64,000 bases of DNA from Bacteroidales bacterium (GTDB lineage Bacteria > Bacteroidota > Bacteroidia > Bacteroidales > UBA1556). The DNA lies in the NCBI GenBank assembly GCA_029932765.1, contig JAOZPM010000001.1, forward strand, positions 34,089-98,088, written 5' to 3'. This document shows positions 12,729-60,919 of this stretch, piece by piece; the stretch's first letter is position 1; each line of letters begins with the position of its first letter. The position numbers were made by a program, and so were the translations under genes. Below the pieces are notes generated by a model. That model saw nothing but the letters and a program-made list of their open reading frames with translations. It had not been told where the DNA came from and did no database searches.

Positions 12729-12755
12729 AATATTTTGTTTTCTTCAGTTAATAAA

Positions 12756-29331: not shown

Positions 29332-32300
29332 TTATTTATTACGTGCTTTACTTACTGATATTCTTTTAGCACCTTCGAATGCAATAATAAAAGCATCGCT
29401 TGAACCATTTTGTTTGATAATAGAACGCTCCTGTGCTGCAGCTTCGTATGTGTCAAAGGATCTACTTGTATAAATAATTAAACCACTTGCTCTTGTATAA
29501 TAGTCGAGTCCATTAGGGCTCAATGATTTCAAGCTTTGAAGCTGATCTCCTTTTCTAACACTCCTAAAGGCTCCTATTTGGACTTTATATACAATTTTTG
29601 TACTTTCAACTATATTATTACTGGTTTCGTCACTAATTTTTACTGTATTATTAGTTGAAGATGTTTGTTCTGTATTACTACTCGTATTATTACCTACTTT
29701 ATTAGTAGCTTGTTTATCACTTGCTTTATTTGCAGCTTGCTTATTCGTAGTAGTTTTATTACTAGCAACAGTAGTTGTAGTAGCTACAATTGTTCTTGCT
29801 TTAGTAATACTAATACGTTCACCTTTCTTAAATGCTACTATAAATGCATCACTTATTCCTATTTTTCTCATATTATTTCTTGATGCAACTGCATCACTCT
29901 CATTATTATAAGTGCCTGAGAAGTATCTATAATAACCTTTAGGTGTTCTATTATAAAACAGATCTTGAATATTAAATAATCGAGAAGAAGTTCTTAAACC
30001 ACCATAAACACCTATTTGAACACTATAGATTACATTATCGTCATTATATAATTCAGTATTAGCAATGCTTAGGCCTGTATTTTTAGGAGTATTAGACTCC
30101 GCCATTTTTTGTTTTTCAACAGAAGCACCATAATTTGCAACACTCAAGTTATTACTTTTGCTAGCAAGTTTAGTATCTGTATAAGCATCTCCATTATCAA
30201 TTATTCTACGAGCAGCAGCAACACTCATTCTTTGTCCGTTATAATAAGCAACTATAAATGCATCTCTATAACCCACCGAACGAATACTTAATTTTGCAAT
30301 ATTAGCATCATCATAATTAACAAATAGACCTGCTAAATATCTAGTATATGCAGAGTTAGATATTACTTCAGCGCAAACTGGCTTTATTCCTTTAAAAGTA
30401 TTTTGTGGTATTTCTTTTTTAAATGCACCTATCTGAACTTTATAAATTAAGCCCATAGGATTTTTAGGATTTACTTTAATTTTTTTAGACTCAGTATAGA
30501 ATTCTTCTTTAGATTCTTTTTTATCAGCAATATATACACCTACTATATCTGCTTTCCGTATCTTATATTCTGTAGTCTGTTTTGGTGTTAAATTATCTGT
30601 ATTTACCAAATACAATTTATCCAGCTCAATACTTGCGATTGTAGTTTTAGCTGTTACTTCAATCTTATCTTTATTATTAATACTCTTAGAAGCATTGGTA
30701 TTATTAGATTCTTTAGCAACTTCTATTTTATCAATAGCAATATTCTCTTTCTCATTATTAGCAATAATAGCTTCTGTTTTCAATAATTTCATTGCTTTAC
30801 GTTGATTACTTATTGCTAACTCAGTATATTGTTTTGCTTGTTCTTCGAATTGCACCTGTACTTCTTCTGATATATCATTTTTTTCAGCTGATACATTACT
30901 ACGATCTGCCAAAGCAAAATTTTGATCTGCAATTAGGAAAAATTCCTTAGCCTGATTTCTTATTAATTGATTTGTTGTACCATTATACATACGCATTATT
31001 ACAACATTTGTACGTTGTATCTCATTTTCAGAAATAAGGCTATTAAGCTTTTCTGCAGTTGTTTTCATTGAATCTGAATACAATCTCAAATCTTCACTTA
31101 AGCTTATAACATTCTGTTTTGAAGACCCTTCAAGAGCATTAGAACTATCTAGTAGTTCAACAGATAATTGTAAATATCTTGTTGATTGCTTTTTCAAATC
31201 CCCTACTATATTCTTATCACTTATCATGCTAAAATCTTCTTTTTCAGAATTATGGTCTTTAATATATTTGACCAAATATAGTTCACCACCTTCAATGATT
31301 CCTCTCTGCTTCTTAAGTTTTGCAATTCTTTTATCAAACTTAACATCCTTAAATCCCTCAAGAATACTAATTTCTTCATCAATAAGTACTCTTTTTTTAA
31401 TAATGAGCATATGCTTTGCTTGAGCAACCTGTATATCATTAACATATATTAGGTCTGTTGAGTTACCATAATAATAGTCCTTTACCACATCGTTATTATA
31501 CACATTATTAAGGATGTAATTACTGCTAACAATTTTGTCATCCTTATCAATAGTTGCATCAGCTAGAAAAATATCGTCATCAAAACTTACATTTTTAACT
31601 AAGTCTATTTCTGCAATTATACTAGTATCCTGTACCGCAATTGAGCTACTTCCTTCAATATAAGTACTTATTGCGTTAAACTCTTTTATTATATTACCAT
31701 TCTTATCAATTACTATTCTCTCATTTGTTATCTCTGTATCTTTAGCAATAATTTCCTCATCAATAATTAATATACTATCATTGAGTAATTCAAGTTCTAT
31801 ATTAACATTTTCTCTTTTCTTTTTGGAAATTTCCAAACTCAATTCATTTTCTAGTTTATCTTGTTTCTGAATTATTTCTGACTTTTCGTTTAAAATTTCA
31901 TCTTTAGAAATCTCAAGTTCAATTTTGTTCTCTTTAGCTATATAAAACTCTTCAGAAATTTCATTTTGGTATTCTTCCAAAGGTGTCTTTTTATTTTCAC
32001 TATCAATAACTGCAGCATAACTATCCATACTAATAGAAAGAAAATTATTTGCAGTAATATAATTCCGGTTTTCTTTAAACTCCTTTTTAATGCAAATTAT
32101 ATTGCTATCAACCTGTTTATTGCCTTCATATAATAATCTTGAGTACATTGCCCCAGCAATTGCTTTACGTTGTACTGCAATAAGTTGCTTGTTTTTATCT
32201 TCTAAACTTACTATTAATCCTGCTTTTTCCTTCGGATTATCTGTATTTTCAATTTTTTCTTCTACATTCTTAATATCAATCTTTACATCTTCAGAAATAT

Positions 32301-35300
32301 CAAAATTTACTTTTGCTAACTGTACACTCTTAGATAGTTTCTGCTTGTTCTCTTTATTTTCTTCGCTTAATTCATTAATTTTATCAATAGCAGGTGCTAA
32401 GTATTTACTACTAACAGCAATCATTGATTCATCAGTAAATTCTGGAATATAAATAGAATCTTGTTTTATAGCAATAATTACAGCTTTATTCTGCATTAGC
32501 TCTAATTTGCGAATATTTTCATTCAACTGTTTATCTTCACTATTATCTTCACTCTCTGAAACAACTTTCGCAAATTCAGAATTACTAACTTCTGGCACAC
32601 TATCAAGCTCATTATAGTGTGCAATTACTACATCTTGAGAAGAATGAGTTTCTTTTTTATCAACAAGAGCCTTCTTCTCTTCATCAAGTAATGCTAGAGT
32701 TTCAAGATCTTTTTTCTTTTCCTGATCATTATCTCCATCTGCTATTTTTGTTAATTCTTCTACTATCTCCAAATTTATTGCCTGAAGTTTTTCTTCACTT
32801 AATTCATCAAATATAGAATTACTCTTAACTTCTAAATATTCTATTTGTACTTCTTCTACTTTTTGAACTACAGTTTTATTATAAGTTTCATAGCTTTTAT
32901 CTTCATTATTAGCCAAATACTCTTCATTTTGAATTTTTATTTCTTCCAAAACTTCAATATTCTTATTATTCTCTTTCTGAATATTCTCTCCTTCTTCTAC
33001 TTTCTCAATAGCAAAACTAGTCGCCACCTTATAGCTTTTCACCTCTTTATAAAGATTCTTTGCTACTATAATTTCTTCAGGAGTAGCATTTTCTTCTGTC
33101 TTTTCGATCGATGCCATTATTTCATTAGCCTCATCTAACTTCTCCTTATTATTTTTGTGCTCTACTACTGCAACAGTCTTAAGTTTATTAATTTTATTAT
33201 TATTGAGATCAATTGCAACTTCTATACTATCGCTTTTAGATTCAAGTATTACAGTATTAGTTGCAATCAATTTTTCATTCACTTCAATATTAGAGCTACT
33301 TTCACTATCAGAACTACTATCTTTTCTTGCGATACTAGTGTTTACACCAACACCTACAGCAACTCCAACTCCTTTATTTACACCATCAGCACTATTGCTT
33401 TTATTGGAAATACTATTATCTTTCTTAGTATTATTAGCGACCTTAGTACTTTTATCAGATTCTTTTTTAGAATTTGATGCCTCAGCTATTAGCTCCGAAT
33501 TATCCGTATTACTTATAGTTAATATGGAGTCTTTATTCACATTATCTTGCAATTCTATTTTTGAATTGGCTTTATTATTATTATCAGCAATGCTTTTATT
33601 TACAGATAATTCAATATTATTATTATTTGAATCAGAACTTAAACTCACTTTAGCATTTGAGCTTTTATTTACTGTACTATCGTCTTTATTATCTGCCTTA
33701 TTTAATTCTAATTTTACTTCTGAGTTTCCCTCAGAATTACCATTAGCATTATTAGACGCTAATATTTCATTAGAATTATTTGCTAAATAATAATCATCTA
33801 ACCTATGTTTTTCTACTAATATATTACTATCAATCATAGCAATTTCGGAAACAGTAACAGTAGAGTCATCTATATAACTACTAGATTTCATATAAGATTT
33901 TATTAAATCTTCGACATCAGCAATAATACTTTCCTCTTCGTTGGCCTCCTTATTAAGGTTATTATATTCTAATACATTACTAATATTTTTATTCTTCTTT
34001 TTTTCTAAATCGGATTCTGTTAAAGCAATTAATTCCGTATACTCCTGCCTTTCTTCAGCATCAGTAGTTTTACTAAGCTCTTCATTATACATTAATAACT
34101 CCTGCCTCAAATCTTTAATTTCTATCAATAATAGTTTACCTTTAAGGTGGTATGTTTTTGATACACTACGCTTTGCAACTACCATTGCTCGCTGCAGAGA
34201 GGTTACCTGCATTACATAATCAGCAACTTTTTCGTTTCGCTTGTTTATATCATTTACATGCTGAAATGCCAATGCAACAGAATCTTTATTGTCACTATTT
34301 GTATATTTGTATATATTCTCTGTTTCAGCAAGAATTGCATTAGCATCAGCTATCATCTCAGTAATCTTTTTATCTAATTTTCCTACAATTTCAGTAGAAA
34401 GTTCAATCGTTTTTTGATGCTTTTTCAATTCCTCTATGGATTTCTCATCACCTTTTTCTGCTATTTGTTTTGCCAAAACCTTACTCTCATCTATTATTTT
34501 TATAAAATTAGTTTTCTTCTTTTGCAACTCAACTATTTTATAATTAAGTTTTTTATATGAGCTATAGCTAGAATCTATTATTGTTTCAAAATCCTCTTTA
34601 TCAGTTAATTGGATAATTTCATTACTATTAGTAGCAACTTCTGGTTCTTCAGTAGATTCCTTAATAGGAATCTTCTTTTTATAATCATCTACATTTATAT
34701 TAGTTTTGAGCTCAGCAATATCTTTCAACAATTTTACAATATCCGTTGCATCTCCTTTATCACGAAAAGCTTTAGCAAAATCTTGTTCGTTAGCCTCATA
34801 GTTAAGCCCAATATGATATACATATATTTCGCCACTAATACTTTTTCTATCTGATGAGAAATACGCCATAGCACCACTAGTATCAGGCACATAAAATACA
34901 TCATTGAAAGGAGTATTTGTAGGAAAGTTCATATTCTTACAATCATTCCAAGAGAGCTTACTTACATTAAATGTAGTTTTAAAAACATCATAGCCACCTA
35001 TACTAGTATGACCTTTTGAGCTAAAGTATAAAGTACTGCCATCCTTTGTTATATATGGGTATGCATCGTCGTAAGGTGTATTAATCTGAGCGCCTAAATT
35101 TTCGGGCTCACCCCAGTCTCCACTAGCCATCAGCTCAGACTTATATATATCCAAACCCATTTCGGCCTTATCACCATAACTTGCAAAGTATAATACATTA
35201 TCATTAGGCAGATACACCCCAAAACTAGGAGAAGAGTGCTTCTTATCGTATTTTGTTTTCAATACCGTGGGAACAGCTATAACTCTACCAAAGGATTCTT

Positions 35301-35826
35301 TAAAATTATAGCTCTTATAAAACGTTTCACTTCTTACTAATTGTTTTTCAATAACATACAGAAGTTTTATATGTGATAATAATAAAATTCCATTTTTACA
35401 TTCCTTAATTCGCTTATCAATATCGAAACTCTTAACATTACGTTTTTTAGCTAAATTTTTATAATTAGTATAAGATGTCTGAGCATCAGAAAATCTATAA
35501 TTTTGATGATATGCTCTTCCCAAATAGTAATGAACTCTATTATCTTCTATAGATAAGTCAATAGCATCAACAAAATATTTTATTGGCCGAGTTTTATTAT
35601 CAGGCTCACTATACATCATACATACTCCTAGGCGAAAGTTGTAATCAGCATTCTCGGAGTTATTACTTCTCAATGTTTGATAATATGGGTATGCAGCTTT
35701 AAAGTTATTCTTTTCAAATAGCTTATTAGCTTCTTTAATGTAGTCATCAACATCAGAGTGATTTTGAGCAACGACATTAAATTGCAAAAGAAAAATAAAC
35801 AATATGTAAAATATATGCTTTATCAA
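29332..35826 (-). CDS. Giant envelope protein: signal peptide + TPR + PD40/TolB-like beta-propeller repeats + ~1300-aa E/K/N-rich coiled-coil/low-complexity spacer + three C-terminal SPOR-like domains
   Basis: 2164-aa uninterrupted ORF with a TTG start. The N-terminus carries TPR-like segments and PD40-like segments (LYFSSKGHTSIGGYDVF, AYFSSDRKSISGEIYVY). It also contains a GVGVAVGVGV tract and three C-terminal Y(K/S)VQIG(A/V)(F/Y)...DAFI(V/I)A modules. Confidence 0.7.
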   Translation of the reverse strand: MIKHIFYILFIFLLQFNVVAQNHSDVDDYIKEANKLFEKNNFKAAYPYYQTLRSNNSENADYNFRLGVCMMYSEPDNKTRPIKYFVDAIDLSIEDNRVHYYLGRAYHQNYRFSDAQTSYTNYKNLAKKRNVKSFDIDKRIKECKNGILLLSHIKLLYVIEKQLVRSETFYKSYNFKESFGRVIAVPTVLKTKYDKKHSSPSFGVYLPNDNVLYFASYGDKAEMGLDIYKSELMASGDWGEPENLGAQINTPYDDAYPYITKDGSTLYFSSKGHTSIGGYDVFKTTFNVSKLSWNDCKNMNFPTNTPFNDVFYVPDTSGAMAYFSSDRKSISGEIYVYHIGLNYEANEQDFAKAFRDKGDATDIVKLLKDIAELKTNINVDDYKKKIPIKESTEEPEVATNSNEIIQLTDKEDFETIIDSSYSSYKKLNYKIVELQKKKTNFIKIIDESKVLAKQIAEKGDEKSIEELKKHQKTIELSTEIVGKLDKKITEMIADANAILAETENIYKYTNSDNKDSVALAFQHVNDINKRNEKVADYVMQVTSLQRAMVVAKRSVSKTYHLKGKLLLIEIKDLRQELLMYNEELSKTTDAEERQEYTELIALTESDLEKKKNKNISNVLEYNNLNKEANEEESIIADVEDLIKSYMKSSSYIDDSTVTVSEIAMIDSNILVEKHRLDDYYLANNSNEILASNNANGNSEGNSEVKLELNKADNKDDSTVNKSSNAKVSLSSDSNNNNIELSVNKSIADNNNKANSKIELQDNVNKDSILTISNTDNSELIAEASNSKKESDKSTKVANNTKKDNSISNKSNSADGVNKGVGVAVGVGVNTSIARKDSSSDSESSSNIEVNEKLIATNTVILESKSDSIEVAIDLNNNKINKLKTVAVVEHKNNKEKLDEANEIMASIEKTEENATPEEIIVAKNLYKEVKSYKVATSFAIEKVEEGENIQKENNKNIEVLEEIKIQNEEYLANNEDKSYETYNKTVVQKVEEVQIEYLEVKSNSIFDELSEEKLQAINLEIVEELTKIADGDNDQEKKKDLETLALLDEEKKALVDKKETHSSQDVVIAHYNELDSVPEVSNSEFAKVVSESEDNSEDKQLNENIRKLELMQNKAVIIAIKQDSIYIPEFTDESMIAVSSKYLAPAIDKINELSEENKENKQKLSKSVQLAKVNFDISEDVKIDIKNVEEKIENTDNPKEKAGLIVSLEDKNKQLIAVQRKAIAGAMYSRLLYEGNKQVDSNIICIKKEFKENRNYITANNFLSISMDSYAAVIDSENKKTPLEEYQNEISEEFYIAKENKIELEISKDEILNEKSEIIQKQDKLENELSLEISKKKRENVNIELELLNDSILIIDEEIIAKDTEITNERIVIDKNGNIIKEFNAISTYIEGSSSIAVQDTSIIAEIDLVKNVSFDDDIFLADATIDKDDKIVSSNYILNNVYNNDVVKDYYYGNSTDLIYVNDIQVAQAKHMLIIKKRVLIDEEISILEGFKDVKFDKRIAKLKKQRGIIEGGELYLVKYIKDHNSEKEDFSMISDKNIVGDLKKQSTRYLQLSVELLDSSNALEGSSKQNVISLSEDLRLYSDSMKTTAEKLNSLISENEIQRTNVVIMRMYNGTTNQLIRNQAKEFFLIADQNFALADRSNVSAEKNDISEEVQVQFEEQAKQYTELAISNQRKAMKLLKTEAIIANNEKENIAIDKIEVAKESNNTNASKSINNKDKIEVTAKTTIASIELDKLYLVNTDNLTPKQTTEYKIRKADIVGVYIADKKESKEEFYTESKKIKVNPKNPMGLIYKVQIGAFKKEIPQNTFKGIKPVCAEVISNSAYTRYLAGLFVNYDDANIAKLSIRSVGYRDAFIVAYYNGQRMSVAAARRIIDNGDAYTDTKLASKSNNLSVANYGASVEKQKMAESNTPKNTGLSIANTELYNDDNVIYSVQIGVYGGLRTSSRLFNIQDLFYNRTPKGYYRYFSGTYNNESDAVASRNNMRKIGISDAFIVAFKKGERISITKARTIVATTTTVASNKTTTNKQAANKASDKQATNKVGNNTSSNTEQTSSTNNTVKISDETSNNIVESTKIVYKVQIGAFRSVRKGDQLQSLKSLSPNGLDYYTRASGLIIYTSRSFDTYEAAAQERSIIKQNGSSDAFIIAFEGAKRISVSKARNK
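29335..30455 (-). repeat. Three tandem SPOR-like domain-coding modules inside the giant gene (approx. 30200-30455, 29790-30040, 29335-29600)
   Basis: Translated repeats YKVQIGAFKKE...DAFIVAYYNGQRMSVAAARRI, YSVQIGVYGG...DAFIVAFKKGERISITKARTI and YKVQIGAFRS...DAFIIAFEGAKRISVSKARNK. Module boundaries are approximate. Confidence 0.5.
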
Positions 35827-50214: not shown

Positions 50215-50778
50215 TTAGTACTCATGCATATTGCTTGGTTTAATAAAATACTTTATAATAAACATGGAGGATAATTCCTCAATAACTTTTCGCAAAACAT
50301 GGCCTACCCTATGTTCATTGATCTTTGTATTCTCTAATTCTATATCCATAATAAACTGATTTTTAGGTTTTATTACTGATTTGTGGCTGGCCCTTACATC
50401 TTTATTCTTATATTTATATATATCTTCATTAATAGTATTAAGCAATCTATTGCGGACATTACTACTAATAACCGAATTAGCAGATTGATGAATATTACTA
50501 CCCTTTATTTTATATTTTCTTTCTTTTAATAAATCATCATTCTCAGCTTTCTTATTCCTTATAAATAATCCATAGATAATAGCTTTTAGAGAGAATATAT
50601 ACTTTACTATTTGGTAAGTTCCAATTTCTATTTCATTAAACACTTTATTAATAGCAACATCCTCTGACGACTCATAATAAAGCTCACAACTTCCTTTATA
50701 TTCCAAACCTTCCACTTTAAAAATACTATTGCCTAACTCATAAAATCGATCCGATAAACTTAAAACTGCTACACCCAT
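50215..50778 (-). CDS. Hypothetical protein, no recognisable domain
   Basis: 187-aa ORF with an ATG start, K/N/I-rich. It is divergent from 51067-52194. A candidate minus-strand -7 box CAAAACTA lies at 50850-50857. Confidence 0.45.
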   Translation of the reverse strand: MGVAVLSLSDRFYELGNSIFKVEGLEYKGSCELYYESSEDVAINKVFNEIEIGTYQIVKYIFSLKAIIYGLFIRNKKAENDDLLKERKYKIKGSNIHQSANSVISSNVRNRLLNTINEDIYKYKNKDVRASHKSVIKPKNQFIMDIELENTKINEHRVGHVLRKVIEELSSMFIIKYFIKPSNMHEY

Positions 50779-51066: not shown

Positions 51067-52194
51067 ATGACTGCAACACTACAAAAAAATCATTTTGAAG
51101 TAATTGATTTACTAGCACAAAGCATTAGCTTGGTGCCTGGATTTCAGCATGCGTATGCTTTTTATTACCACCCTATTGATAAAGAAATACAGGCTGCTTA
51201 TGCTACCAATGATAGTATTAGCACCATAGATACAGGCTTTGATAAGTTATCGATTAACATTGCAAAACTTAGAAAATCAAAGCAAAAGATTGAATGGGTT
51301 GATAAAAATGAGATTCCTTTTGACAAGAGAACTAAGAATCTAGAAATTCAGAAAGAAGTTTTTGATGAATTAAAACATCATATACTACTGTATAGAGTAA
51401 AGAATACTTTTGATAATAGCTACGACTTACTATATGTTTTCTTTAAGGCTGACTCGTCAAATTTTGGAATTAAGAATTCCAATAATAATCTTTCTACTGA
51501 TCAAAAGAGTATTATCTCTACGCTAATCACAAATTCTTTTAATATTTTTCTCAAACAACGAAAAGAAAATAATAAGGCTCAGGAGCTTTTGCGTCAAGAT
51601 TTGGCAAGAGTGAATCAGTACCTTAAAAAATATAAAAGCAGTTCTGAAGTTAAGAAATACAAAAAAATAATTAAAAGCTACATCTACTCTACTTTTGATA
51701 TTGAAATAAACAAACTTAATCTTATTGGGAACTATTCCGAAGAGATTGATGAATTAATGAATTCATATACAGGAAATATAAATACCATTCAGAATAATGT
51801 AAAACAATGTGTTGCAATGGCATATCGTATTCAGAATCCTATAATTGGTAGTATTATAAATATTGATGAAATTATTTACCAATCATTTTTTAGTACTATT
51901 GAAAATGAGTCTGTTACTTCTACAAATTATTCGTCCATTGATAGCCGAAAGCAAAAAGCTGTTCAATTCTTAAATAATCTGGAAAATGCTGCTCGTGTAG
52001 TTTTATCTAAAGGTGATAATATTACTGGTGTAAAAGTAGGTCAAGCAATGGAGGCGCCAATAACTGCTCCTGCAATTAGCGATTATATTAAAAAGTATCA
52101 AAAACCAATAAAGCTCCTCTGTCAAGAAAATCCAGAGCAATGGCTAATTATTCAGAAATCATTTAATCCTTTGAAAAATATACTTTCTGCATAA
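51067..52194 (+). CDS. Hypothetical protein, no recognisable domain
   Basis: 375-aa ORF with an ATG start. Its composition is typical of coding sequence in this genome, and I recognise no motif. It converges on the phosphonate operon with a 7-nt gap. Confidence 0.55.
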   Translation: MTATLQKNHFEVIDLLAQSISLVPGFQHAYAFYYHPIDKEIQAAYATNDSISTIDTGFDKLSINIAKLRKSKQKIEWVDKNEIPFDKRTKNLEIQKEVFDELKHHILLYRVKNTFDNSYDLLYVFFKADSSNFGIKNSNNNLSTDQKSIISTLITNSFNIFLKQRKENNKAQELLRQDLARVNQYLKKYKSSSEVKKYKKIIKSYIYSTFDIEINKLNLIGNYSEEIDELMNSYTGNINTIQNNVKQCVAMAYRIQNPIIGSIINIDEIIYQSFFSTIENESVTSTNYSSIDSRKQKAVQFLNNLENAARVVLSKGDNITGVKVGQAMEAPITAPAISDYIKKYQKPIKLLCQENPEQWLIIQKSFNPLKNILSA

Positions 52195-52201
52195 TTAGGC
52201 T

Positions 52202-55200
52202 TTACTCCTTATCTAATCTAGTCCAGTTATCAGCATCGAATACATTATCCTTAACTTTATACCAATAGCTATAAGAGAATTTTTTGCTTTTATCAATACT
52301 CTCTGCCCACCAAGCAATAAATGCTGGAAGCGTACGAGAAACTATGCTATCATTTGTAGGGTTTATCTCATCAAACATAATAGAATTAACATCAGCGTTC
52401 GACATAAATCTATTATCAATAAGCATATCTCCTTTTTCATTAAAATCTTTCACCAATAATAATGGATTTAGTGAAAGTAGATGTTCTTGGCTCACCTTTT
52501 CCTCATTAGTATTTATAAATGGAAAATTAACTTCTATCTCTCCATCATATCGATGCCAAGGCACTCCATGGTCCGAAACTATAATAATTTTAGTATTATC
52601 GTAAACACCATTTTTTTTCATCCATTTAACCCAATGGGCAAAAGTTTCTATTGTCCATCTATTAGTAGTCAAAGGTGAAACATTAGTATGTAGCTCACCT
52701 GTATTATCAACATAATTCCAAGGAAAATGAGTATTAAATGAATAAAGTAGTATTAAATTTGGTTGATCATTCTGAGTAGTTGAAATATGAGGTAATAAAC
52801 GTAGAAAGTTATAGCTATTAGCCATCCAAGAATTCTCATGCATTTCTTGCTTAACAAAATATGATTTCAACCAACTACCTTCATTATAAACTAAAGATTT
52901 AAGAACCAAAGGAACACAATAAAGCAAAGCAGTTTCAATAATTAGTTCCGAATTATCTGATTTTACACTATTAATTCCTAGTTCATAATTATATGAATCC
53001 CACTCTTTATTCCATCTTGGCAATAGTATATCATAACCTATTTCTTCAATATTAGTATATGGAAATTTATTCATTGTAACAGCAAAACCATTATTATGGG
53101 CTTTATCTATAAGAGATTTCATTGCTGTTGTCATTTTCTGACGAATAGTGTGTACAGTATCTTTATCCAATACATTTGGCACAAAATCAAAGCCTCCAAT
53201 AAGAGCAGGCATTGTGGAGTTTGTTACTCTCGAAACTGACAGAGTATTTCTATACCACTTAAACCCTGTATATTCATTTACAATATTAGGATTATCTTCT
53301 ATAATAGTTTCCATTGCTAGCCCTTGAAACATATCGGGCATAAGAAGAATAATATTCTTTTTTGTTTTAGAAAAATTAATAATTAATTCACCTTCTATAA
53401 CTCTTTCAACTTGATTTTTGCTACTAAAAAATTTATCAGATGAGATACTTTTGACAATACTCTGAGTTGCAACTACTATATTTAGCACTATTAAGCTATA
53501 AACTATATATGTAGATTTTTTTCGTTTTAATAACCAAACAAATATAAAGAACGAACTAAGTATTAACAAACTCTCTACAATAAAGTAGATAATCGGAGCA
53601 TCGAGATTTTTCTCTTCAGAAAAGCGATTAACCTGCAATGTGCCTAAATCAAAAGGGAATAGCGTATTATTAAAGAATGCTATAAATACAATTACTAAGA
53701 GTGTTATTAGCATAATAAGCTTTGTTCTTTTGCGAAGAAAAAAGAATACTACTAGTAACAAAATCAAGACAATTGCTAAATATTGAGCACCTTTTATAAT
53801 AATATCAATAGCAGAAAATTCAAAAGCTTCGGGAAAAGATGAAAAGCTCATAAGTGGTCCCCAAATGAAAATCTGACCAAAAATATATAATGCAGACAAA
53901 AGGAATAATAAATAATAATTGCTAATTTCAAATAATTGTAACTTCTTCTGCTTTTGATAAAAGAAAAACAAAACACTTGTAACAATAATTCCTACACTAC
54001 GAAATGTAAATAAGAAACTATTCTCCATAGAGTAGCCTATCTCATACACTGTCAATAACTTATCAGCCAATTGCAAAATACCTAGAGTATTACTAAATTG
54101 TAGTATAATAAGAGGCAATACTAATAGTAACGAAAATGATTTATACCTTAAAGTTTTTAGATCTCTTAAGTAATATCCAATTGCTATAAGCTCAATGGGA
54201 ATAAGAAATAATAAAGAAACAAAATCAAGGCTTTTATTCATTTCTTGATAAAAGAATATTGAAGACATATGAAAATATGCAGCAAAAAACAATAAGGAAA
54301 GGTATACCCTAGGCTCAATTTCAATATTTATTATACTTATAATAGATTTCTTAATTTGTTCTTGAAAAAGAATATAGATAATGTATAATACTATTGATAT
54401 AAGTAATGCTAATCCTATTCTCAAAGCAAACAAATCATAAGTATGGTTAAGTGCCCAGTTGACTTGTATTATCACAAATGCTATAGCAAGGATATAAAAT
54501 ACTTTTAGAGACGCAATTAACCTTTCCTTAAAAGAAGACATTTCTAGTTCAATTACCTGAGTATTTACTGTTAAGGTTCGCTTTATTTTAAACACTTCTG
54601 GATTAGTAATAAACAACCTAAAAAAGCTAAAAACATTATTTAGTGTCCAATAAAGCAAAAGAGCAGATGGTAAATTATACAACATTATTAAAAATACTGC
54701 AGCAATAACTATCATTTGATTTCGTTCCTTTTTTTCGCCATTAATTGTATAGAAGTAAACTGTAACTAAATTCACTATTGTCATTAATACTGGAAGTATA
54801 TTTATTGCTCCCATAAATGAATCTGCCTTACTTAAGTCATTGATAAAAAGGAAACTCTGACCAATAAGTGGAGAATAATGCTCCAAAAACTGATAGGCAG
54901 CAATAAAAAATGGAATCTGAATAAGTAAACTCAGCACAGGAATTAGTGCACGAGTTGGGCTATAATTGTGTTGTCTATTGAGTGTTTTTAGATAGTAATA
55001 CCTCTCCTGCCCTTTATAGCAAGCTTTTATTTCCTCTACCAAAGGTTTCATCCTCTGTTTTATGGTATCATCTTTCTTTTTTGCCTTTTCAATAAAAATA
55101 AAAATTGGCAATAGAATTAATGAAATAAATAAACTTAATAATACAATGGCAACGCCATAATCTCCACTAAGATTATATGAAAATAAGAAAATATATTTTA

Positions 55201-55243
55201 TTATAAAAACAAAAGGGCTCATTATAATTTCAAATACATCCAT
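52202..55243 (-). CDS. Fusion protein: YidC/Oxa1-like insertase domain + large polytopic block + C-terminal sulfatase/alkaline-phosphatase-superfamily (LtaS/EptA-like) domain
   Basis: 1013 aa. The N-terminal ~215 aa (approx. 54600-55243) resemble YidC/Oxa1 (GDYGVAIVLLSLFISLILLP, KPLVEEIK..YKG, LLLYWTLNNVFS). Many TMs follow (approx. 53370-54600). The C-terminal domain (52202-~53370) has NIILLMPDMFQG and IIIVSDHG motifs. Confidence 0.6.
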   Translation of the reverse strand: MDVFEIIMSPFVFIIKYIFLFSYNLSGDYGVAIVLLSLFISLILLPIFIFIEKAKKKDDTIKQRMKPLVEEIKACYKGQERYYYLKTLNRQHNYSPTRALIPVLSLLIQIPFFIAAYQFLEHYSPLIGQSFLFINDLSKADSFMGAINILPVLMTIVNLVTVYFYTINGEKKERNQMIVIAAVFLIMLYNLPSALLLYWTLNNVFSFFRLFITNPEVFKIKRTLTVNTQVIELEMSSFKERLIASLKVFYILAIAFVIIQVNWALNHTYDLFALRIGLALLISIVLYIIYILFQEQIKKSIISIINIEIEPRVYLSLLFFAAYFHMSSIFFYQEMNKSLDFVSLLFLIPIELIAIGYYLRDLKTLRYKSFSLLLVLPLIILQFSNTLGILQLADKLLTVYEIGYSMENSFLFTFRSVGIIVTSVLFFFYQKQKKLQLFEISNYYLLFLLSALYIFGQIFIWGPLMSFSSFPEAFEFSAIDIIIKGAQYLAIVLILLLVVFFFLRKRTKLIMLITLLVIVFIAFFNNTLFPFDLGTLQVNRFSEEKNLDAPIIYFIVESLLILSSFFIFVWLLKRKKSTYIVYSLIVLNIVVATQSIVKSISSDKFFSSKNQVERVIEGELIINFSKTKKNIILLMPDMFQGLAMETIIEDNPNIVNEYTGFKWYRNTLSVSRVTNSTMPALIGGFDFVPNVLDKDTVHTIRQKMTTAMKSLIDKAHNNGFAVTMNKFPYTNIEEIGYDILLPRWNKEWDSYNYELGINSVKSDNSELIIETALLYCVPLVLKSLVYNEGSWLKSYFVKQEMHENSWMANSYNFLRLLPHISTTQNDQPNLILLYSFNTHFPWNYVDNTGELHTNVSPLTTNRWTIETFAHWVKWMKKNGVYDNTKIIIVSDHGVPWHRYDGEIEVNFPFINTNEEKVSQEHLLSLNPLLLVKDFNEKGDMLIDNRFMSNADVNSIMFDEINPTNDSIVSRTLPAFIAWWAESIDKSKKFSYSYWYKVKDNVFDADNWTRLDKE

Positions 55244-56505
55244 TATTCTTGCCCTCCTTTATTATCATCCAAATGGATATTATCTACAATAGTAATAATC
55301 TGGTCAGCAGCTACTTCTCCTGCTTTTCCAAAGTTAAATACCGATTCGTTTTTCAAGTCAGATAATTGCATCTCTGGAGGATTCAAAATTAGATTATTAA
55401 CAATATCACTAATATTTGACACATCATTCTCATCAAATATCTTTCCTAGTCTTTTTCGCTCTTTAACTTCCCACATCTCATAATTAAGTTCGCTACCTTC
55501 AAAACCCAAGATATCATCAAAATTTGTTTTAAGCAGAAGAACTGGCTTCGAATAAAGAAAAGCAAAATCCCAAATTACTCCCGATAGATCACTTATCATA
55601 AGATCAGCCTTTGCCATACTCTCCGTTCCCAAGCGATTATTATCTATACTAAAGCGAGCTTCATTAACAAATTTTTTCTCTATATCAGATATAACTTTTG
55701 GAAAGCTTACATAGCTTTGTGGGTGTGGGCGTAAAATAATATTATAATTACTATTGTTTAATAATGCATCAAAAAAATCTGTACCAAACCTATTAATTAT
55801 TGAATACTCCTTCCATGTTGGAGCAACCAATACTACAGGATTTTTATTTTCATTTTTTGGTAAATGGGAAATCTCATCGAGCATTATATCATAATATGTA
55901 AGCCCTGTTTCCAAAAGAAGTTTTTCATCAGTTTTTCTTTGTTTTTCTAATTGCCTAATCCCTTTAATTTGATGAGGCCCTGAACAAAATACTGAATCAA
56001 AATAGTCGAAGGCAAATTTTCGGTAAGTAAAAACATCTATTGGAGCATGTACAATATGCCCATAATGACTAACATTTTTTGAACGACGAATCATCATAAC
56101 ATCAAGCTGTGGTGTAGTCATTCCCACAAATTTTGCTTTAAGTTTACTCAAATATACCGATGTCATCGTTATATTACCAATATATTTACTTTGGTATAAA
56201 ACTGAAGAATATCTTAAACCCGGATCATCTTTATCAGATGATAAATAAACACAAGCCCTACCTTTTAGCTCCAACGCTCTAATTATTGGTAAAAATACAT
56301 TCCAGTATTGTTTTCCTTCAGAATAAAAGATAATATCAGAATTACCAAACTCATTGTCGGTACTAAAACCATTGCCAAGGACAAAATTCTTAAGTTTATA
56401 AAAAAAACCACGCAAAGAATATGCTACTGTAGCAACCACTGCTACAATTATATATAATAATGCACTGGTAGATGCTGGGTCTATATATAATAAGTGAGCA
56501 AGCAT
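55243..56505 (-). CDS. CDP-glycerol glycerophosphotransferase (TagB/TagF) family protein with N-terminal TM
   Basis: 420 aa. The C-terminal region DLMISDLSGVIWDFAFLYSKPVLL resembles the TagF-family donor-binding region. The stop and start overlap by 1 nt (TAATG) at both ends. Confidence 0.65.
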   Translation of the reverse strand: MLAHLLYIDPASTSALLYIIVAVVATVAYSLRGFFYKLKNFVLGNGFSTDNEFGNSDIIFYSEGKQYWNVFLPIIRALELKGRACVYLSSDKDDPGLRYSSVLYQSKYIGNITMTSVYLSKLKAKFVGMTTPQLDVMMIRRSKNVSHYGHIVHAPIDVFTYRKFAFDYFDSVFCSGPHQIKGIRQLEKQRKTDEKLLLETGLTYYDIMLDEISHLPKNENKNPVVLVAPTWKEYSIINRFGTDFFDALLNNSNYNIILRPHPQSYVSFPKVISDIEKKFVNEARFSIDNNRLGTESMAKADLMISDLSGVIWDFAFLYSKPVLLLKTNFDDILGFEGSELNYEMWEVKERKRLGKIFDENDVSNISDIVNNLILNPPEMQLSDLKNESVFNFGKAGEVAADQIITIVDNIHLDDNKGGQE

Positions 56506-57626
56506 TAATTATTAGTGTTTAAAAAATCCTTTATAGTATCATTACTAACCCTACGAGGATTATTATTAAGTCTTTCAAAATTAATACTTCTGAGCATTAA
56601 TTTCGTATCTATATTTCCAATTAATTTATTAATATTTAGTTCTAGTCCTATTTTTTTAAGAAAATCATTAAGAATATCAAATGCCGTATTTTCATCTGCA
56701 TTCATTATTTCCAATAACTTTCTAATTCTAACTTTAACATCTATAGAACCTTTATTTAGTGTACAATCTACATCCGTAACTTCTGAGTTAAATTTCAGAA
56801 AGAAAGCTAAACTTAAACCTACAGCATGGCCATGTGCAATACCGTAATAACTTGTAAAGAAATAAGACAGAGCGTGTGGCGCAGTGGTTTTAGTTATATT
56901 AATGGCCTTACCTGCAATAAACGAAGCTTCAAGCATTTTAGCTTTAGCATTTTCATTATTATCAATTACAGCTGCTTCAATATTATTCCATATCATCTCG
57001 AATGCCTCTAAAGAAAGCTCTTCTGATTTAGCATTTGCATTAATACTCCATTGCGACTCCATAGCTTGTGCCATGGCATCTACTCCCGTTACAGCAATTA
57101 AATATGGACTTGCCGAAATTAAAAATCTAGGTGATAAGAATACATATTTAGGAAGAATACTATCATTGGAAACAGAGTATTTCTGTTTATTGATATATAC
57201 AACTGCAAAATGCGTAGCTTCGGCTCCTGTACCTGCAGTAGTTGGAATTGCCATTAAGTCAATATTGTTATTATCAAAATCAATATCTCCCTTAATAAGG
57301 TTCTCAACTTCTGTGGGCTGAGTAGCCATTCCCGAAATTAATTTAGCCATATCAATAACGCTTCCACCACCAATTGCTATAATCAATTCGTAATCGCCTT
57401 TATTAAATAATTCTATTCCTTTCTGTAAATCAATACTATTGGGATTTACATCAAAATTAGAGAAACTTGAAAGCTGATTATTAAATTTATTCGCAATAAA
57501 CAATTCAGCACCAGAGTTTTTATATGAATTTTTACCATGGACTAAAAATATTTTATTGGAATCATATTTTGCTAAAATATCATCTAATATATTAATATCG
57601 TTTTCTCTGATTATCTCTTGCTGCAT
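56505..57626 (-). CDS. Iron-containing alcohol dehydrogenase, predicted phosphonoacetaldehyde reductase
   Basis: 373 aa. Fe-ADH motifs GGGSVIDMAK and His-rich HALSY...GIAHGHAVG. The function is inferred from its position after the pepM and ppd genes. Confidence 0.65.
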   Translation of the reverse strand: MQQEIIRENDINILDDILAKYDSNKIFLVHGKNSYKNSGAELFIANKFNNQLSSFSNFDVNPNSIDLQKGIELFNKGDYELIIAIGGGSVIDMAKLISGMATQPTEVENLIKGDIDFDNNNIDLMAIPTTAGTGAEATHFAVVYINKQKYSVSNDSILPKYVFLSPRFLISASPYLIAVTGVDAMAQAMESQWSINANAKSEELSLEAFEMIWNNIEAAVIDNNENAKAKMLEASFIAGKAINITKTTAPHALSYFFTSYYGIAHGHAVGLSLAFFLKFNSEVTDVDCTLNKGSIDVKVRIRKLLEIMNADENTAFDILNDFLKKIGLELNINKLIGNIDTKLMLRSINFERLNNNPRRVSNDTIKDFLNTNN

Positions 57627-57630
57627 ATTC

Positions 57631-58761
57631 CTAATTATCTTTTAGAAAGCTCATAAATTTACGCTTATTACTCAATGGCGGTATAGAAGGTCGTCCAAGA
57701 TTTTTTCTTGAACCAATTTTTACTCTCACTTCTATTAATGAGGGGCCATCGCTCTCTCTAACCTCTTCAAATGCCTTATTAAATGATTCTATATCACTTA
57801 CAGTTATTGCATATTTATAATTGTTAGCCTTTGCCAATTTAGGAATATCAATATCAAAGCCAACTGTGGCTTGGCCTCCAACCGATTCGTGAGCGCCATT
57901 ATTAATAATAATATGGATTAAATTACTAGGGTTAGCTTTACCAATAATAGCCATTGAACCCATATGCATTAATAATGCTCCGTCACCATCAATACATACA
58001 ACTTCTGTATTTGGCTTTGTAATGGCAACACCAAGAGCTATCTGACTAGCATGTCCCATAGAACCTACCGTTAGAAAATCTCTATCATGGTTTTGATCTA
58101 TCTTATCTCTATATTCAAACAATTCGCGAGAAGTTTTGCCAGTGGTAGAAACTATTACCTCACTCCCATTCTGCTTATCTACAATGGCTTTAATAACATC
58201 CTCACGGCTTAGTTTATACTCTGTTTCTATTTTTGAATTCATAGAGTATTTTTCGAATGTATCTTTACGAACCACAATGGCAAAAGGACTTGAGCTTTGC
58301 GAAATTTGCAAAACTGCCATATTTAATTGCAGAATTGCCTCATTCTCATCAGGACTTAATACCACATATGGAATTTGAGCTGCTTCTAAAAATGCAATTG
58401 TCTGTGCACCCTGTGCAATATGCTGTGGTTCATCCTTAATATTAGGTTCGCCACGCCAGCCTATCATAAGCAACATAGGAATTCTATATACCGCCTCACT
58501 CGTGAGCGACATTAGTGGATTTATGGCATTCCCAAAACCTGAGTTCTGCATATATACCATTGGAATTTTTCTGCTTGCCATATGATAACCCGCTGCCAAA
58601 GCAATTGCATTACCTTCATTTGCAGCAATTATATGATTACTATCATCAGTATTATCAGATATATATGAGCATATTTCCTTTAATAGTGAATCTGGCACTC
58701 CCGTAAAAAATTCAATATTATTTTCCTTTAATTTTAGGAAAAACTTCTCTGTATTAATCAT
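57631..58761 (-). CDS. aepY: Phosphonopyruvate decarboxylase (ThDP-dependent)
   Basis: 376 aa. The N-terminus FFTGVPDSLLKE and the ThDP motif GDGALLMHMGS...IIINNGAHES are typical of Ppd/AepY/Fom2. Confidence 0.85.
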   Translation of the reverse strand: MINTEKFFLKLKENNIEFFTGVPDSLLKEICSYISDNTDDSNHIIAANEGNAIALAAGYHMASRKIPMVYMQNSGFGNAINPLMSLTSEAVYRIPMLLMIGWRGEPNIKDEPQHIAQGAQTIAFLEAAQIPYVVLSPDENEAILQLNMAVLQISQSSSPFAIVVRKDTFEKYSMNSKIETEYKLSREDVIKAIVDKQNGSEVIVSTTGKTSRELFEYRDKIDQNHDRDFLTVGSMGHASQIALGVAITKPNTEVVCIDGDGALLMHMGSMAIIGKANPSNLIHIIINNGAHESVGGQATVGFDIDIPKLAKANNYKYAITVSDIESFNKAFEEVRESDGPSLIEVRVKIGSRKNLGRPSIPPLSNKRKFMSFLKDN

Positions 58762-60077
58762 TATTTAGTTCCTGGAATTAAGTTTAATATTTCTTTTATT
58801 GACATACATTTATCATCAACTTCTAGTGAACGTTCATTTTTTAGAATACTCTCTGCTGTTTCCATCATTGCAGGGTAAGCGCTTCGTAATAAATGATTTG
58901 CATAAATAACAATGTTTACTCCAGCATCACTTAATTGCTGCTCTGTAAAATGATTATAACTTGAAGGAACAGCTACCAAAGGCACATTTCCATCTATCTT
59001 CTTATATCTATTGCAAAACTCCATTATCTCCTCACCATCCTTCTCCTTACTATGAATCATAATTGCATCAGCACCAGCCCCTATATAAGCTTTAGCTCTT
59101 TTAATAGCATCATCATTTCCTTGATTAAGTATAAGGCTCTCTATACGAGCTATTATCATAAAATCCTTGGTTACCTGAGCCCTTTTACCAGCAGATATTT
59201 TCTCACAAAACTTCTCAATAGTATCCTGAGTTTGTGCTACGTCTGTTCCAAAAAGTGAATTTTTCTTTAAGCCTGTTTTATCTTCAATAATAACTGCCGA
59301 AACACCTAATCTTTCAAGCGTTCTAACAGTAAAAACAAAATGTTCAGGAATACCGCCAGTATCGCCATCATAAATAATTGGCTTAGTGGTTACTTCAAGA
59401 ATATCATTTAAACCATGTAAGCGCGAAGTCACGTCAACTGCCTCAATATCCGGCTTTCCCTTAGCTGTAGAGTCCGTTAAACTACTAAGCCACATTGCAT
59501 CAAATTCTCTTTTTGCTCCATCTTTATTTACAAATGCATTCTCAACAATAAGTCCCGTAAGACCATTATGAGCTTCCATTACTTTCACTATTGATTTTGC
59601 ATCAATTAATCGTCGCAATTTCGACATGCGAACTTCTGGCGTAGTTCCAATCTCTTTTATCGATTGAATAAGTTGTGTTGATGAAATACCCTTAGTATAT
59701 GGCACTTCGTACAACTCTCCTCCCCATTGTTTTAGTGTATCAATTACATTCTGGCGAGTCTTTTGTTGAACACCATTTTTCCAATCATCGCCATGAACAA
59801 CATAATTAGGTTTCAATTCAATAAGGTTATTTGTATAATCAAGCTCATTTTGAGGCACTACTTTACTAACACCTTTAATGCTTTCTACAACAATTTTTCT
59901 TTGCTCATATTTTAATGCAGGAAGTCGTTTATAGCTCGCAATTGCTTTATCAGTTAATAAGCCAATTGTTACTACTCCCAACATACTTGCTTCCTTTATT
60001 ATATTAAGGTGTCCAGGGTGAATTAAGTCTGCACTCATCCCCACATATACTGTTTTATTTGCCATAGTTATTGTCAT
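58761..60077 (-). CDS. aepX: Bifunctional cytidylyltransferase - phosphoenolpyruvate mutase (Fom1-like architecture)
   Basis: 438 aa. The N-terminal ~135 aa carry the HxGH nucleotidyltransferase motif ([15 protein letters not shown]). The C-terminal domain carries the PepM signature [10 protein letters not shown] (EDKxxxxxNS, nt 59256-59285). An alternative ATG lies at 60065. Confidence 0.85.
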
Positions 60078-60090
60078 AAATCATAAAAAA

Positions 60091-60098
60091 CAAAATTA
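60091..60098 (-). promoter_or_regulatory. Minus-strand -7 box (CAAAATTA = rc TAATTTTG) upstream of the phosphonate operon; a second candidate CAAATCTA at 60114-60121
   Basis: Exact TAnnTTTG matches on the minus strand, in the 167-bp divergent spacer shared with ppa. Confidence 0.35.
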
Positions 60099-60216
60099 GC
60101 ATTTTTATATACGCAAATCTAATTTAGTTTATTGTATTAGAGTGTCTGAAAAGTAAATATCTACAATCATTTTTATTAATTAAACATACTAAATGTATAA
60201 GACTATAATTTTTTAC

Positions 60217-60244: not shown

Positions 60245-60919
60245 ATGAATTCAAACAAATTAATGGATCCCATTGGAAAATTAATGGGATTAAGATATAA
60301 ATCGCATCCATGGCATGGTGTTGATATTGGTCCTGAGAGCCCTGATGTTATTACTTGTTTTGTAGAAATGGTACCTACCGATACTGTAAAATATGAAGTT
60401 GATAAGGCTTCTGGATATTTAATTATAGATAGGCCACAGAAATACTCTAACGTTATTCCGGCACTATATGGCTTTATACCACAAACGTATAGCGATGAAA
60501 GTGTTGCCGAATATTGTATGGAGAAATCTGGTAAAAAAGGCATCAAAGGAGATCAAGACCCTATAGATATTTGTATCCTTACAGAAAAAGTAATTAGTCA
60601 TGGCGATATCTTAGTGAAAGCTAAACCTATTGGGGGATTTAGAATGATTGATGATAACGAATCTGACGATAAGATTGTTGCCGTGCTTCGCAATGATGCT
60701 TTATATGCAGGATTTAATGATATATCAGAAATTCCTGAGACTGTTATTAATAGACTTAAGCACTATTTTCTAACTTATAAAGATCTCCCTGGTAATAAGA
60801 AAGAAGTTGAGATCACTCACACCTTTGGTAAAGAAGAAGCTTTGGAAATAATTGTTAGGTCACAAAAAGATTATCAAGATAAATTTGAAAAACTTGGTAA
60901 TTTGCTAAGTAGCGTATAA
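60245..60919 (+). CDS. ppa: Inorganic pyrophosphatase (family I)
   Basis: 224 aa. Motifs HPWHG, YEVDK..G, DQDPIDICIL and DDKIVAV. Confidence 0.88.
   Translation: MNSNKLMDPIGKLMGLRYKSHPWHGVDIGPESPDVITCFVEMVPTDTVKYEVDKASGYLIIDRPQKYSNVIPALYGFIPQTYSDESVAEYCMEKSGKKGIKGDQDPIDICILTEKVISHGDILVKAKPIGGFRMIDDNESDDKIVAVLRNDALYAGFNDISEIPETVINRLKHYFLTYKDLPGNKKEVEITHTFGKEEALEIIVRSQKDYQDKFEKLGNLLSSV

Follow-up and report, generated by a model that had tools for sequence, protein, structure and literature searches.

The 64,000-nucleotide stretch analysed here (the window; positions 34,089 to 98,088 of contig JAOZPM010000001.1, from assembly GCA_029932765.1 of an uncultured Bacteroidales bacterium) carries a five-gene operon predicted, with considerable confidence, to make 2-hydroxyethylphosphonate (HEP) and to activate it with CMP. 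The last two genes encode a TagF-like transferase and a protein in which a YidC-like membrane domain is fused to a predicted transferase domain of the alkaline phosphatase (AP) superfamily. This TagF-like/YidC-like/AP-transferase trio is a portable module that occurs across many phyla with differing supply genes, and its recognition as such is the main thing that our analysis adds. The cell envelope is the most likely destination of the activated HEP, and we see about an even chance that the operon is a self-contained system placing hydroxyethylphosphonyl groups there by means of a relay.

Results

Organization of the operon

All five open reading frames (ORFs) lie on the minus strand. In order of transcription they encode a cytidylyltransferase fused to phosphoenolpyruvate (PEP) mutase (PepM; ORF1, 58761-60077, 438 aa), a phosphonopyruvate decarboxylase (Ppd; ORF2, 57631-58761, 376 aa), an iron-dependent alcohol dehydrogenase (Fe-ADH; ORF3, 56505-57626, 373 aa), the TagF-like phospho(no)transferase (ORF4, 55243-56505, 420 aa) and the YidC-AP fusion protein (ORF5, 52202-55243, 1013 aa). 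Read on the coding strand, one-base TAATG stop/start overlaps connect successive genes at 58761, 56505 and 55243, and the junction of Ppd and the Fe-ADH reads TAG-GAAT-ATG, leaving a 4-nt gap (57627-57630). A first-pass annotation of the window had described these five frames, three overlaps and one gap, together with four enzyme motifs, and all of them are present; the motifs are EDKxxxxxNS, diagnostic here of PEP mutase, at residue 265 of ORF1, HxGH (as HPGH) at residue 20 of the same protein, GDG at residue 259 of ORF2 and GGGSVIDMAK at residue 86 of ORF3.

A predicted route from PEP to CMP-HEP

The PEP mutase domain occupies residues 154-437 of ORF1 (58767-59618, minus strand; PF13714, 194 bits), and the protein matches the PEP mutase model TIGR02320 at 419 bits against a cut-off of 319.6, over positions 1-283 of the 284 in the model. 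Upstream of this domain, residues 7-143 (59649-60059, minus strand) form a Fom1-type cytidylyltransferase domain. It scores 48 bits against the CTP_transf_like family PF01467 (cut-off 21) and, in a phmmer search of the Protein Data Bank (PDB), aligns over 137 residues with the solved structure of the Fom1 domain, 5x3d, at E=1.4e-57 and 197 bits. Ethanolamine-phosphate, glycerol-3-phosphate and choline-phosphate cytidylyltransferases match it far worse, with E values from 1e-14 to 1e-3. Formation of CMP-HEP by the Fom1 cytidylyltransferase domain is attributed to Cho et al. 2017 in PMC6697681. Because the match to the solved Fom1 domain is so close, CMP-HEP is the likely product, and we predict that the N-terminal domain of ORF1 converts HEP and CTP to CMP-HEP. 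The Fom1 match is the strongest single support for the earlier idea that the operon makes this compound.

ORF2 matches the phosphonopyruvate decarboxylase model TIGR03297 at 495 bits (cut-off 312.5) and holds both thiamine diphosphate domains, TPP_enzyme_N (PF02776) and TPP_enzyme_C (PF02775). ORF3 is matched by PF00465 (Fe-ADH, 115 bits) and PF25137 (ADH_Fe_C, 86 bits), and in the Bacteroidota loci described below its gene always stands between those for Ppd and the TagF-like protein. From this conserved synteny and context we assign it as a predicted phosphonoacetaldehyde reductase that would yield HEP. A catabolic role for the Fe-ADH, in HEP oxidation, was considered and rejected on account of its translational coupling to PepM and Ppd. 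The profile matches and the 5x3d alignment support the route that the first-pass annotation had drawn, in which PepM, Ppd and an Fe-ADH lead to HEP and a Fom1-type domain to HEP-CMP.

The same annotation had noted the lack of genes for a 2-aminoethylphosphonate (AEP) transaminase and for later fosfomycin enzymes, and this also holds, both for the cassette in the window and for syntenic loci. We found no aminotransferase in the 23 kb of annotated sequence that surround the operon, among 20 other scanned ORFs of the window or in three syntenic loci, and no Fom3 (radical-SAM/B12 methyltransferase), FomD or Fom4 epoxidase in the cassette, its flanks or the syntenic loci.

A TagF-like transferase with its own membrane anchor

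ORF4 had been called TagF-like on first inspection, and its donor-binding half does belong to the TagF family. It scores 38 bits against Glyphos_transf (PF04464; cut-off 22.1), over residues 187-329 only. A cross-phylum profile of the TagF-like proteins finds Cps3D (8qoy, E=2e-7), TagF (3l7j, 6e-5) and TarL (8va1, 3e-4) in the PDB, with matches confined to the C-terminal donor-binding half, and a narrower profile built from Bacteroidota alone gave zero matches to PDB sequences at E<=10. In these alignments APTW of the TagF-like proteins corresponds to APTWR, the His of RPHPQ (H261) to that of LRMH in TagF and RGHH in Cps3D, and SDxSG to TDYSS. The best Foldseek match of the AlphaFold2 (AF2) model is likewise TagF (3l7k), although the model is mediocre (16 close homologs; mean confidence score, pLDDT, 65). 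H153 is invariant and is a candidate for the second catalytic His.

Within the first 42 residues (56380-56505, minus strand), a membrane helix comes after the motif Y-x-D-P-G/A-S/T-x-S at the extreme N-terminus, whose Tyr, Asp and Pro are invariant in 22/22 sequences from across the phyla. Lys and Arg residues come after the helix, which argues for an N-out anchor and a cytoplasmic catalytic domain. Such conservation of the motif is odd for a simple anchor; it may indicate that the YidC-like partner makes contact there. Across Bacteroidota the TagF-like proteins share 68-77% identity, and a 97%-identical gene is present in the metagenome-assembled genome (MAG) Bacteroidales bacterium GMC7.concoct.166.

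A YidC-like domain fused to a predicted head-group transferase

ORF5 consists of three parts. The first, residues 1-218 (54590-55243, minus strand), is a YidC/Oxa1-like domain identified by PF02096 (60KD_IMP; 87.5 bits against 35) and TIGR03592 (97.3 against 84.3), and a profile of the fusion family matches the YidC structures 6y86, 3wvf and 3wo6. It is the best-conserved part of the fusion, with 70% mean identity and 70 invariant columns. In HMMER alignments, the canonical Arg in the hydrophilic groove of YidC (in IVRLILYPL; R366 of the E. coli protein), in the first core helix, aligns with a Ser (Ser41) that is invariant in the fusion family. The second part, residues 219-605 (53429-54589, minus strand), is a linker with eleven further transmembrane (TM) helices, which the AF2 model places at residues 246-601. 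The last five or so helices before the soluble domain form the membrane anchor typical of LtaS/EptA/PbgA-type enzymes, with about six additional helices between them and the YidC core, and library relatives of the fusion mostly align from about residue 443 onward.

The third part, residues 606-1013 (52205-53428, minus strand), is an AP-superfamily domain, an assignment that rests on the family profile, the structure model and conserved catalytic residues. D637 (in LMPDMFQG), T674 (SRVTNSTMP), H839 (NTHFPW) and D891-H892 (VSDHG) are invariant in 36/36 members of the fusion family. Among 35 sequences drawn from other phyla, both the Asp and the Asp-His pair are found 35/35 times, the His in 33/35, and the nucleophile is Thr in 26 and Ser in 9. 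These Asp, His and Asp-His residues and the Thr are the metal ligands and nucleophile of the AP superfamily. The AF2 model of the whole protein (pLDDT 81.8) consists of 17 long helices followed by an alpha/beta domain, with T674 at the N-terminus of a helix spanning residues 674-683. Its best Foldseek match is full-length PbgA/YejM (6xlp, 681 aligned columns); further matches include full-length MCR-1 (9nww, 623 columns), LtaS, LtaP, many sulfatases and 4uph. The loops of the membrane part carry 25 Lys and Arg residues on the inside against 4 on the outside, a bias that puts the AP domain in the periplasm and so agrees with the outer-face location proposed for it earlier.

The protein had been described as a YidC-sulfatase fusion. 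Its YidC half stands, as the PF02096 and TIGR03592 matches show, and its sulfatase half does not: the nucleophile is Thr, the Sulfatase family PF00884 reaches 15.8 bits (cut-off 25), and neither ORF5 nor any of the 35 relatives from other phyla has the formylglycine motif C/S-x-P-x-R at the nucleophile. We rejected a sulfatase identity on these motifs and on the anchored architecture, which is like that of LtaS, EptA and PbgA, and not on fold rank. In its predicted fold the domain resembles PbgA, MCR-1 and LtaS, and we predict that it is a periplasmic head-group transferase.

A conserved cassette and a portable trio

This combination of genes, in which the first-pass annotation saw the novelty, is not confined to the genome in hand and forms a conserved cassette. 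A genome scan with the TagF-like profile, mapped by phmmer, gave 80 loci, and the full cassette is present in about 40 loci from Bacteroidota. The five-gene order is identical in the cultured strain Lentimicrobium sp. S6 and in MAGs, with unrelated flanks and with 1-3 tandem paralogs of the fusion gene. The median gap at the PepM/Ppd and Ppd/ADH junctions in the Bacteroidota loci is -1 nt. In L003 (1247-3579), which shares its contig with L007, the cassette is interrupted on both sides of the TagF-like gene, by a PDDEXK_3 gene and a ParE-toxin/antitoxin pair, and its gene order is otherwise intact.

Beyond the cassette, the TagF-like gene has a YidC-like gene no more than 1.5 kb away in 72/72 informative loci, from at least seven phyla; the remaining 8 of the 80 loci are cut by contig ends. 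The trio was seen in Bacteroidota, Spirochaetota (including Treponema), Nitrospirota, Desulfovibrionaceae, Proteobacteria, Helicobacter and Erysipelothrix. In a protein collection clustered at 90% identity, at least 749 entries belong to the fusion family, and all those with names are from Bacteroidota MAGs and annotated merely as "membrane protein insertase YidC". The TM and AP part has 2365 relatives at E<=1e-3, and 1164 at E<=1e-10, among 50%-identity representatives.

The genes that would supply the trio differ from lineage to lineage. In Nitrospirota they encode a PepM-NTP_transf_3 fusion, Ppd and a methyltransferase; in Massilia a stand-alone PepM and an NTP_transf_3 protein; and in a Helicobacter sp. 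a cytidylyltransferase-PepM fusion and a methyltransferase. In Helicobacter muridarum ST1 (locus L070, 9944-15886) the TagF-like and YidC-AP genes are followed by one for a LicC-like nucleotidyltransferase fused to a choline/ethanolamine kinase, which suggests that this module handles a CDP-choline-type head group. Spirochaetia and Desulfovibrionaceae have TagD-sized cytidylyltransferases, and Steroidobacteraceae a 356-aa cytidylyltransferase encoded amid housekeeping genes.

The trio itself comes in three arrangements, in which YidC and AP are fused, YidC and AP are separate, or TagF, TM and AP are fused beside a separate YidC. Steroidobacteraceae, Hydrogenophaga and Xanthomonas encode YidC and AP separately. 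The split module of Peristeroidobacter soli (L069, 8259-13965) comprises genes for the 356-aa cytidylyltransferase, the TagF-like protein, a 235-aa YidC-like protein and a 684-aa AP-domain protein; its neighbours are housekeeping genes, smc, zipA and ligA on the upstream side and ispA and a PPIase gene on the downstream side, and PepM is absent from the vicinity. In Erysipelothrix spp. (L065, 9486-13081; also L059, L062 and L066) a TagF-like domain is fused to TM helices and a distant AP-like domain in a protein of about 1000 aa. The AP-like domain gives a weak hhalign match (E=3e-4, probability 38%) in which the catalytic motifs align. A small separate YidC-like gene lies directly upstream, preceded in L065 by genes for LicD and a GT4 glycosyltransferase. 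Treponema has arrays (L054, 3-19792, Treponema sp.; L056, 558-14088, T. putidum ATCC 700334) of 4-6 tandem YidC-AP paralogs interleaved with two TagF-like genes, and no PepM within the 14-21 kb covered. The L054 array is flanked by genes for an MBOAT acyltransferase, a glycosyltransferase and a protein whose match to the SGNH domain is weak and below threshold.

Genomic setting

G+C content is about 30% throughout, and the operon shows no compositional break. In gene content the window agrees with the ENA metagenome contig ERZ27227322:k141_2188487, which encodes an identical fusion protein; for the TagF-like protein an exact-sequence look-up gave no record, the database copy being 99% identical. 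Upstream of ORF1 (60091-60121, minus strand), inspection revealed two sequences of the form TAnnTTTG, the Bacteroides promoter motif: TAGATTTG (60121-60114) and TAATTTTG (60098-60091) are thereby candidate promoter elements of the Bacteroidota type. A sigma-70 promoter scan, uninformative for a Bacteroidota genome, returned 50 sites against 50.9 in shuffled sequences.

Divergent from the operon is a gene for an inorganic pyrophosphatase (60245-60919, plus strand; NF001886, 316 bits), which would clear the pyrophosphate released by the cytidylyltransferase step; the adjacency may be coincidental. We rejected it as a member of the system because in Lentimicrobium sp. S6 and in locus L004 the cassette has no adjoining copy. 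On the other side, an ORF of 375 aa (51067-52194, plus strand) converges on the fusion gene, ending 7 nt from its stop codon, and one of 187 aa lies beyond it (50215-50778, minus strand); neither has a Pfam or NCBIfam match. Elsewhere in the window are a 2164-aa ORF (29332-35826, minus strand), matched by known families only in one PD40 repeat and in a SPOR (peptidoglycan-binding) domain at its C-terminus, and a run of fatty-acid beta-oxidation genes (7106-15158, minus strand) encoding an AMP-binding acyl-CoA synthetase, an acyl-CoA dehydrogenase, a thiolase and a fused 3-hydroxyacyl-CoA dehydrogenase/enoyl-CoA hydratase.

Discussion

Based on these comparisons we can present a proposal for how the five proteins work together as a head-group relay. 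In the cytoplasm, PepM would convert PEP to phosphonopyruvate, Ppd would convert phosphonopyruvate to phosphonoacetaldehyde, the Fe-ADH would turn this into HEP, and the Fom1-type domain fused to PepM would form CMP-HEP. The membrane-anchored TagF-like enzyme, which probably uses CMP-HEP, would then load the hydroxyethylphosphonyl group onto the hydroxyl of a lipid (diacylglycerol, a glycolipid or a ceramide being candidates) and free CMP, the product being a lipid-linked HEP donor. The YidC-like domain would flip this lipid to the outer leaflet, dock the anchor of the TagF-like enzyme, or both, and the AP domain would take the phosphonyl group onto Thr674 and hand it to an envelope acceptor. 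Where the fusion gene is duplicated in tandem, the paralogs may serve different acceptors or form a primase and polymerase pair.

The central place of a lipid in this proposal follows from linkage and topology: if a cytoplasmic TagF-like enzyme and a periplasmic transferase with a Thr nucleophile share one pathway, a membrane-embedded intermediate must connect them. LtaS, GacH, EptA and OpgB all draw their head groups from membrane lipids. The cassette encodes neither a glycosyltransferase nor an exporter, which makes it probable that the acceptor is either a common component of the envelope or the product of genes elsewhere. A constant donor side combined with variable acceptors would also fit the pattern of conservation in Bacteroidota, where the TagF-like protein and the YidC-like domain are well conserved, as given above, against 43% identity for the periplasmic domain and 30% for the middle helices. 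As for movement across the membrane, E. coli YidC scrambles glycerophospholipids in vitro (PMC11047089). We hold a lipid relay with final periplasmic transfer to be a little short of an even bet, and the part of the YidC-like domain as a flippase to be tentative. Similarly speculative is the extension of the scheme to the whole trio, as a widespread head-group relay with a dedicated lipid donor, a neofunctionalised YidC flippase (Arg to Ser) and LtaS/EptA-like installation or polymerisation, with HEP as the cargo in Bacteroidota.

Several points weigh against the relay. In this organism the pathway steps are predicted from genes, and sequence does not reveal the lipid donor, a flippase activity or the acceptor; to insert its partners or keep them in place could be all that the YidC-like domain does. 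We know of no TagF-family enzyme that uses a simple lipid as acceptor, the known acceptors being lipid-linked glycans or growing polymers. Residues 1-186 of ORF4 give no sequence alignment to TagF, and in its AF2 model pLDDT falls to 31-45 at residues 131-204. Foldseek is unable to separate the transferases of the AP superfamily from its sulfatases and hydrolases. Among the early enzymes, the top NCBIfam match of ORF3, Phn_Fe-ADH (TIGR03405), reaches 148 bits and lies below its cut-off of 423.7. Finally, fusions of PF01467 to PepM are also found in AEP-type clusters (PMC8942020), so that similarity to Fom1 is no proof of HEP specificity.

The most serious rival, though in our view an unlikely one, is that the TagF-like enzyme decorates a glycan directly in the cytoplasm, adding the HEP-phosphonyl group to an undecaprenyl-pyrophosphate-linked precursor of O-antigen, capsule or another glycan whose exporter is encoded elsewhere, in the manner of TagB, TagF and LicD. 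The YidC-AP protein would then have an independent function in the periplasm, for example to trim, relocate or hydrolyse phosphonate esters, with its YidC part as a private insertase or chaperone. The TagF, TarL and Cps3D matches agree with this, as known enzymes of that family work on lipid-linked glycans, and so do the presence of phosphonate monoester hydrolases as well as sulfatases in the AP fold (4uph among the Foldseek matches) and the established role of YidC in insertion. However, the cassette contains neither a glycosyltransferase nor an exporter and its flanks are unrelated, while the linkage of TagF-like and YidC-AP genes in every informative locus and the TagF-TM-AP fusion of Erysipelothrix point to one pathway or complex; the combination of a Thr/Ser nucleophile with a polytopic anchor is, moreover, characteristic of LtaS, EptA and OpgB, which transfer lipid head groups. 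A polymer of HEP, as envisaged in the first-pass annotation, is a further, improbable reading. HEP keeps a free hydroxyl, so that a teichoic-acid-like C-P polymer might be built on a lipid anchor, either at the inner face by the TagF-like enzyme or at the outer face by the LtaS-like domain, much as TagF, TarL, Cps3D and LtaS polymerise phospho-alcohol units; the tandem paralogs (1-3 in Bacteroidota, up to six in Treponema) also recall the pair of LtaP primase and LtaS polymerase. Yet no sequence feature here distinguishes a polymerase from a single-transfer enzyme, the TagF-like protein is short, with no alignable TagF N-terminal acceptor domain, and known HEP glycoconjugates bear single HEP esters (PMC8942020).

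We consider it quite improbable that the lipid is itself the end product, with the TagF-like enzyme making a final hydroxyethylphosphonate lipid that YidC-AP only redistributes or remodels. Among the known fates of bacterial phosphonates, phosphonolipids are a major one, predicted phosphonolipid clusters contain "multiple sulfatases" (PMC8942020), and such a cassette would need no genes for acceptor synthesis. The known synthesis of these lipids, however, proceeds through CDP-alcohol phosphatidyltransferases and not TagF-like enzymes, and every AP domain keeps its nucleophile and metal site intact, which, along with the diversifying tandem paralogs, argues for onward transfer to a variety of acceptors. 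Highly improbable, lastly, is a different head group, whether AEP, a methylated or hydroxylated derivative made by enzymes encoded elsewhere, or the head group of CDP-glycerol, with the phosphonate genes serving another purpose. The sub-threshold score of the Fe-ADH, the PF01467-PepM fusions of AEP clusters and the pairing of trio relatives with non-phosphonate supply genes would all be consistent with it. Against it stand the inheritance, as a unit, of five translationally coupled genes in about 40 genomes whose cassettes neither contain nor adjoin a transaminase gene, and a cytidylyltransferase domain that fits Fom1 far better than the enzymes for ethanolamine-phosphate, glycerol-3-phosphate or choline-phosphate.

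Comparison with known systems shows which parts of the proposed relay are shared and which are not. The early fosfomycin pathway of Streptomyces wedmorensis (Fom1 cytidylyltransferase-PepM, Fom2 decarboxylase and FomC Fe-ADH) has the same four chemistries and the same fusion, but the Bacteroidales cassette lacks the Fom3 methyltransferase, FomD hydrolase and Fom4 epoxidase, and in it CMP-HEP would be the donor of a transferase instead of a transient protecting group. In the phosphonyl-tailoring (Pnt) and Lic pathways, too, a small phospho(no)-alcohol is activated with CMP, by PntC or LicC, and transferred to surface glycans by a LicD-type phosphotransferase; here, the alcohol would be HEP and not AEP or phosphocholine, the transferase is TagF-like and not LicD, and there is an additional YidC-like and periplasmic AP component. 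Glycans decorated with HEP or methylphosphonate, those of Nitrosopumilus maritimus and the phosphonoglycans of Stackebrandtia and Glycomyces, share the PepM, Ppd and Fe-ADH route to HEP for extracellular macromolecules (PMC8942020, PMC9381506), in other phyla and with other tailoring genes; in the available literature the trio is not reported for them.

TagF, TarL and the TagF-like capsule polymerases Cps3D and Bcs3, from Gram-positive and Gram-negative bacteria, share with ORF4 a GT-B-type fold and a CDP-alcohol donor half with APTW(R/K), the conserved His and (S/T)D-x-S, whereas only the C-terminal half of ORF4 aligns, the invariant N-terminal motif, given for this comparison as Y-x-D-P-G-S/T-G-S, and the membrane helix are its own, and the presumed donor is a CMP-phosphonate. 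With LtaS, GacH, EptA/MCR-1, OpgB and PbgA, the fusion protein shares the last five or so helices and soluble domain, the Asp/Asp-His ligands, a Thr at a helix N-terminus and the location outside the membrane. Sequence similarity to LtaS is nevertheless marginal (E=0.003-0.01 with the family profile), and the fusion has about 12 extra helices, including the N-terminal YidC/Oxa1 domain, an obligate cytoplasmic TagF-like partner and, presumably, a C-P head-group donor in place of phosphatidylglycerol or phosphatidylethanolamine. The YidC/Oxa1 insertases have the same five-helix core (PF02096, TIGR03592), but the ORF5 domain lacks a P1 domain, has an invariant Ser in place of the groove Arg, is linked to an envelope-modifying enzyme, by fusion or as a neighbour, and is co-inherited with the TagF-like gene. 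The last two of these differences point to a specialised and not a housekeeping role.

The synthesis and cytidylyl activation of the phosphonate are ordinary, since PF01467-PepM fusions, HEP-type neighbourhoods and "multiple sulfatases" in pepM clusters are already known: nucleotidyltransferase domains are commonly fused to PepM, PF01467 fusions accounting for 23.6% of Ppm proteins (PMC6697681), and HEP-type neighbourhoods are put at 8.5% (PMC8942020 / PMC6697681) and are reported for Helicobacter cinaedi and Campylobacter jejuni (PMC8942020). In the searchable literature we found no description of the TagF-like/YidC-like/AP-transferase module, with or without pepM; the pepM-neighbourhood survey of Yu et al. 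2013 lay outside the coverage of that search and might depict the locus without naming the trio. That survey, in PNAS, is said to have defined the pepM neighbourhood groups.

The steps that follow CMP activation of phosphonates "remain enigmatic" (PMC6697681), and the operon presented here is a compact, five-gene candidate for the full route of such phosphonates to the cell surface. Since the trio occurs with supply genes of phosphonate, CDP-glycerol and CDP-choline type, its mechanism bears on envelope chemistry beyond this genome; its role is most likely the decoration of envelopes with nucleotide-activated head groups, with an unusual, possibly new, role for YidC/Oxa1. If so, a YidC/Oxa1 domain committed to envelope modification would represent a new physiological role for the fold and offer a natural test of insertase scramblase activity. 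A large part of the high-molecular-weight organic phosphorus in the sea consists of esters of HEP and methylphosphonate (PMC9381506), and sediment Bacteroidales with the cassette are a possible, unrecognised environmental source of HEP. Were the relay to hold, these bacteria would have an envelope decorated with HEP or bearing a poly-HEP like lipoteichoic acid, and would be a candidate source of the HEP esters found in the environment.

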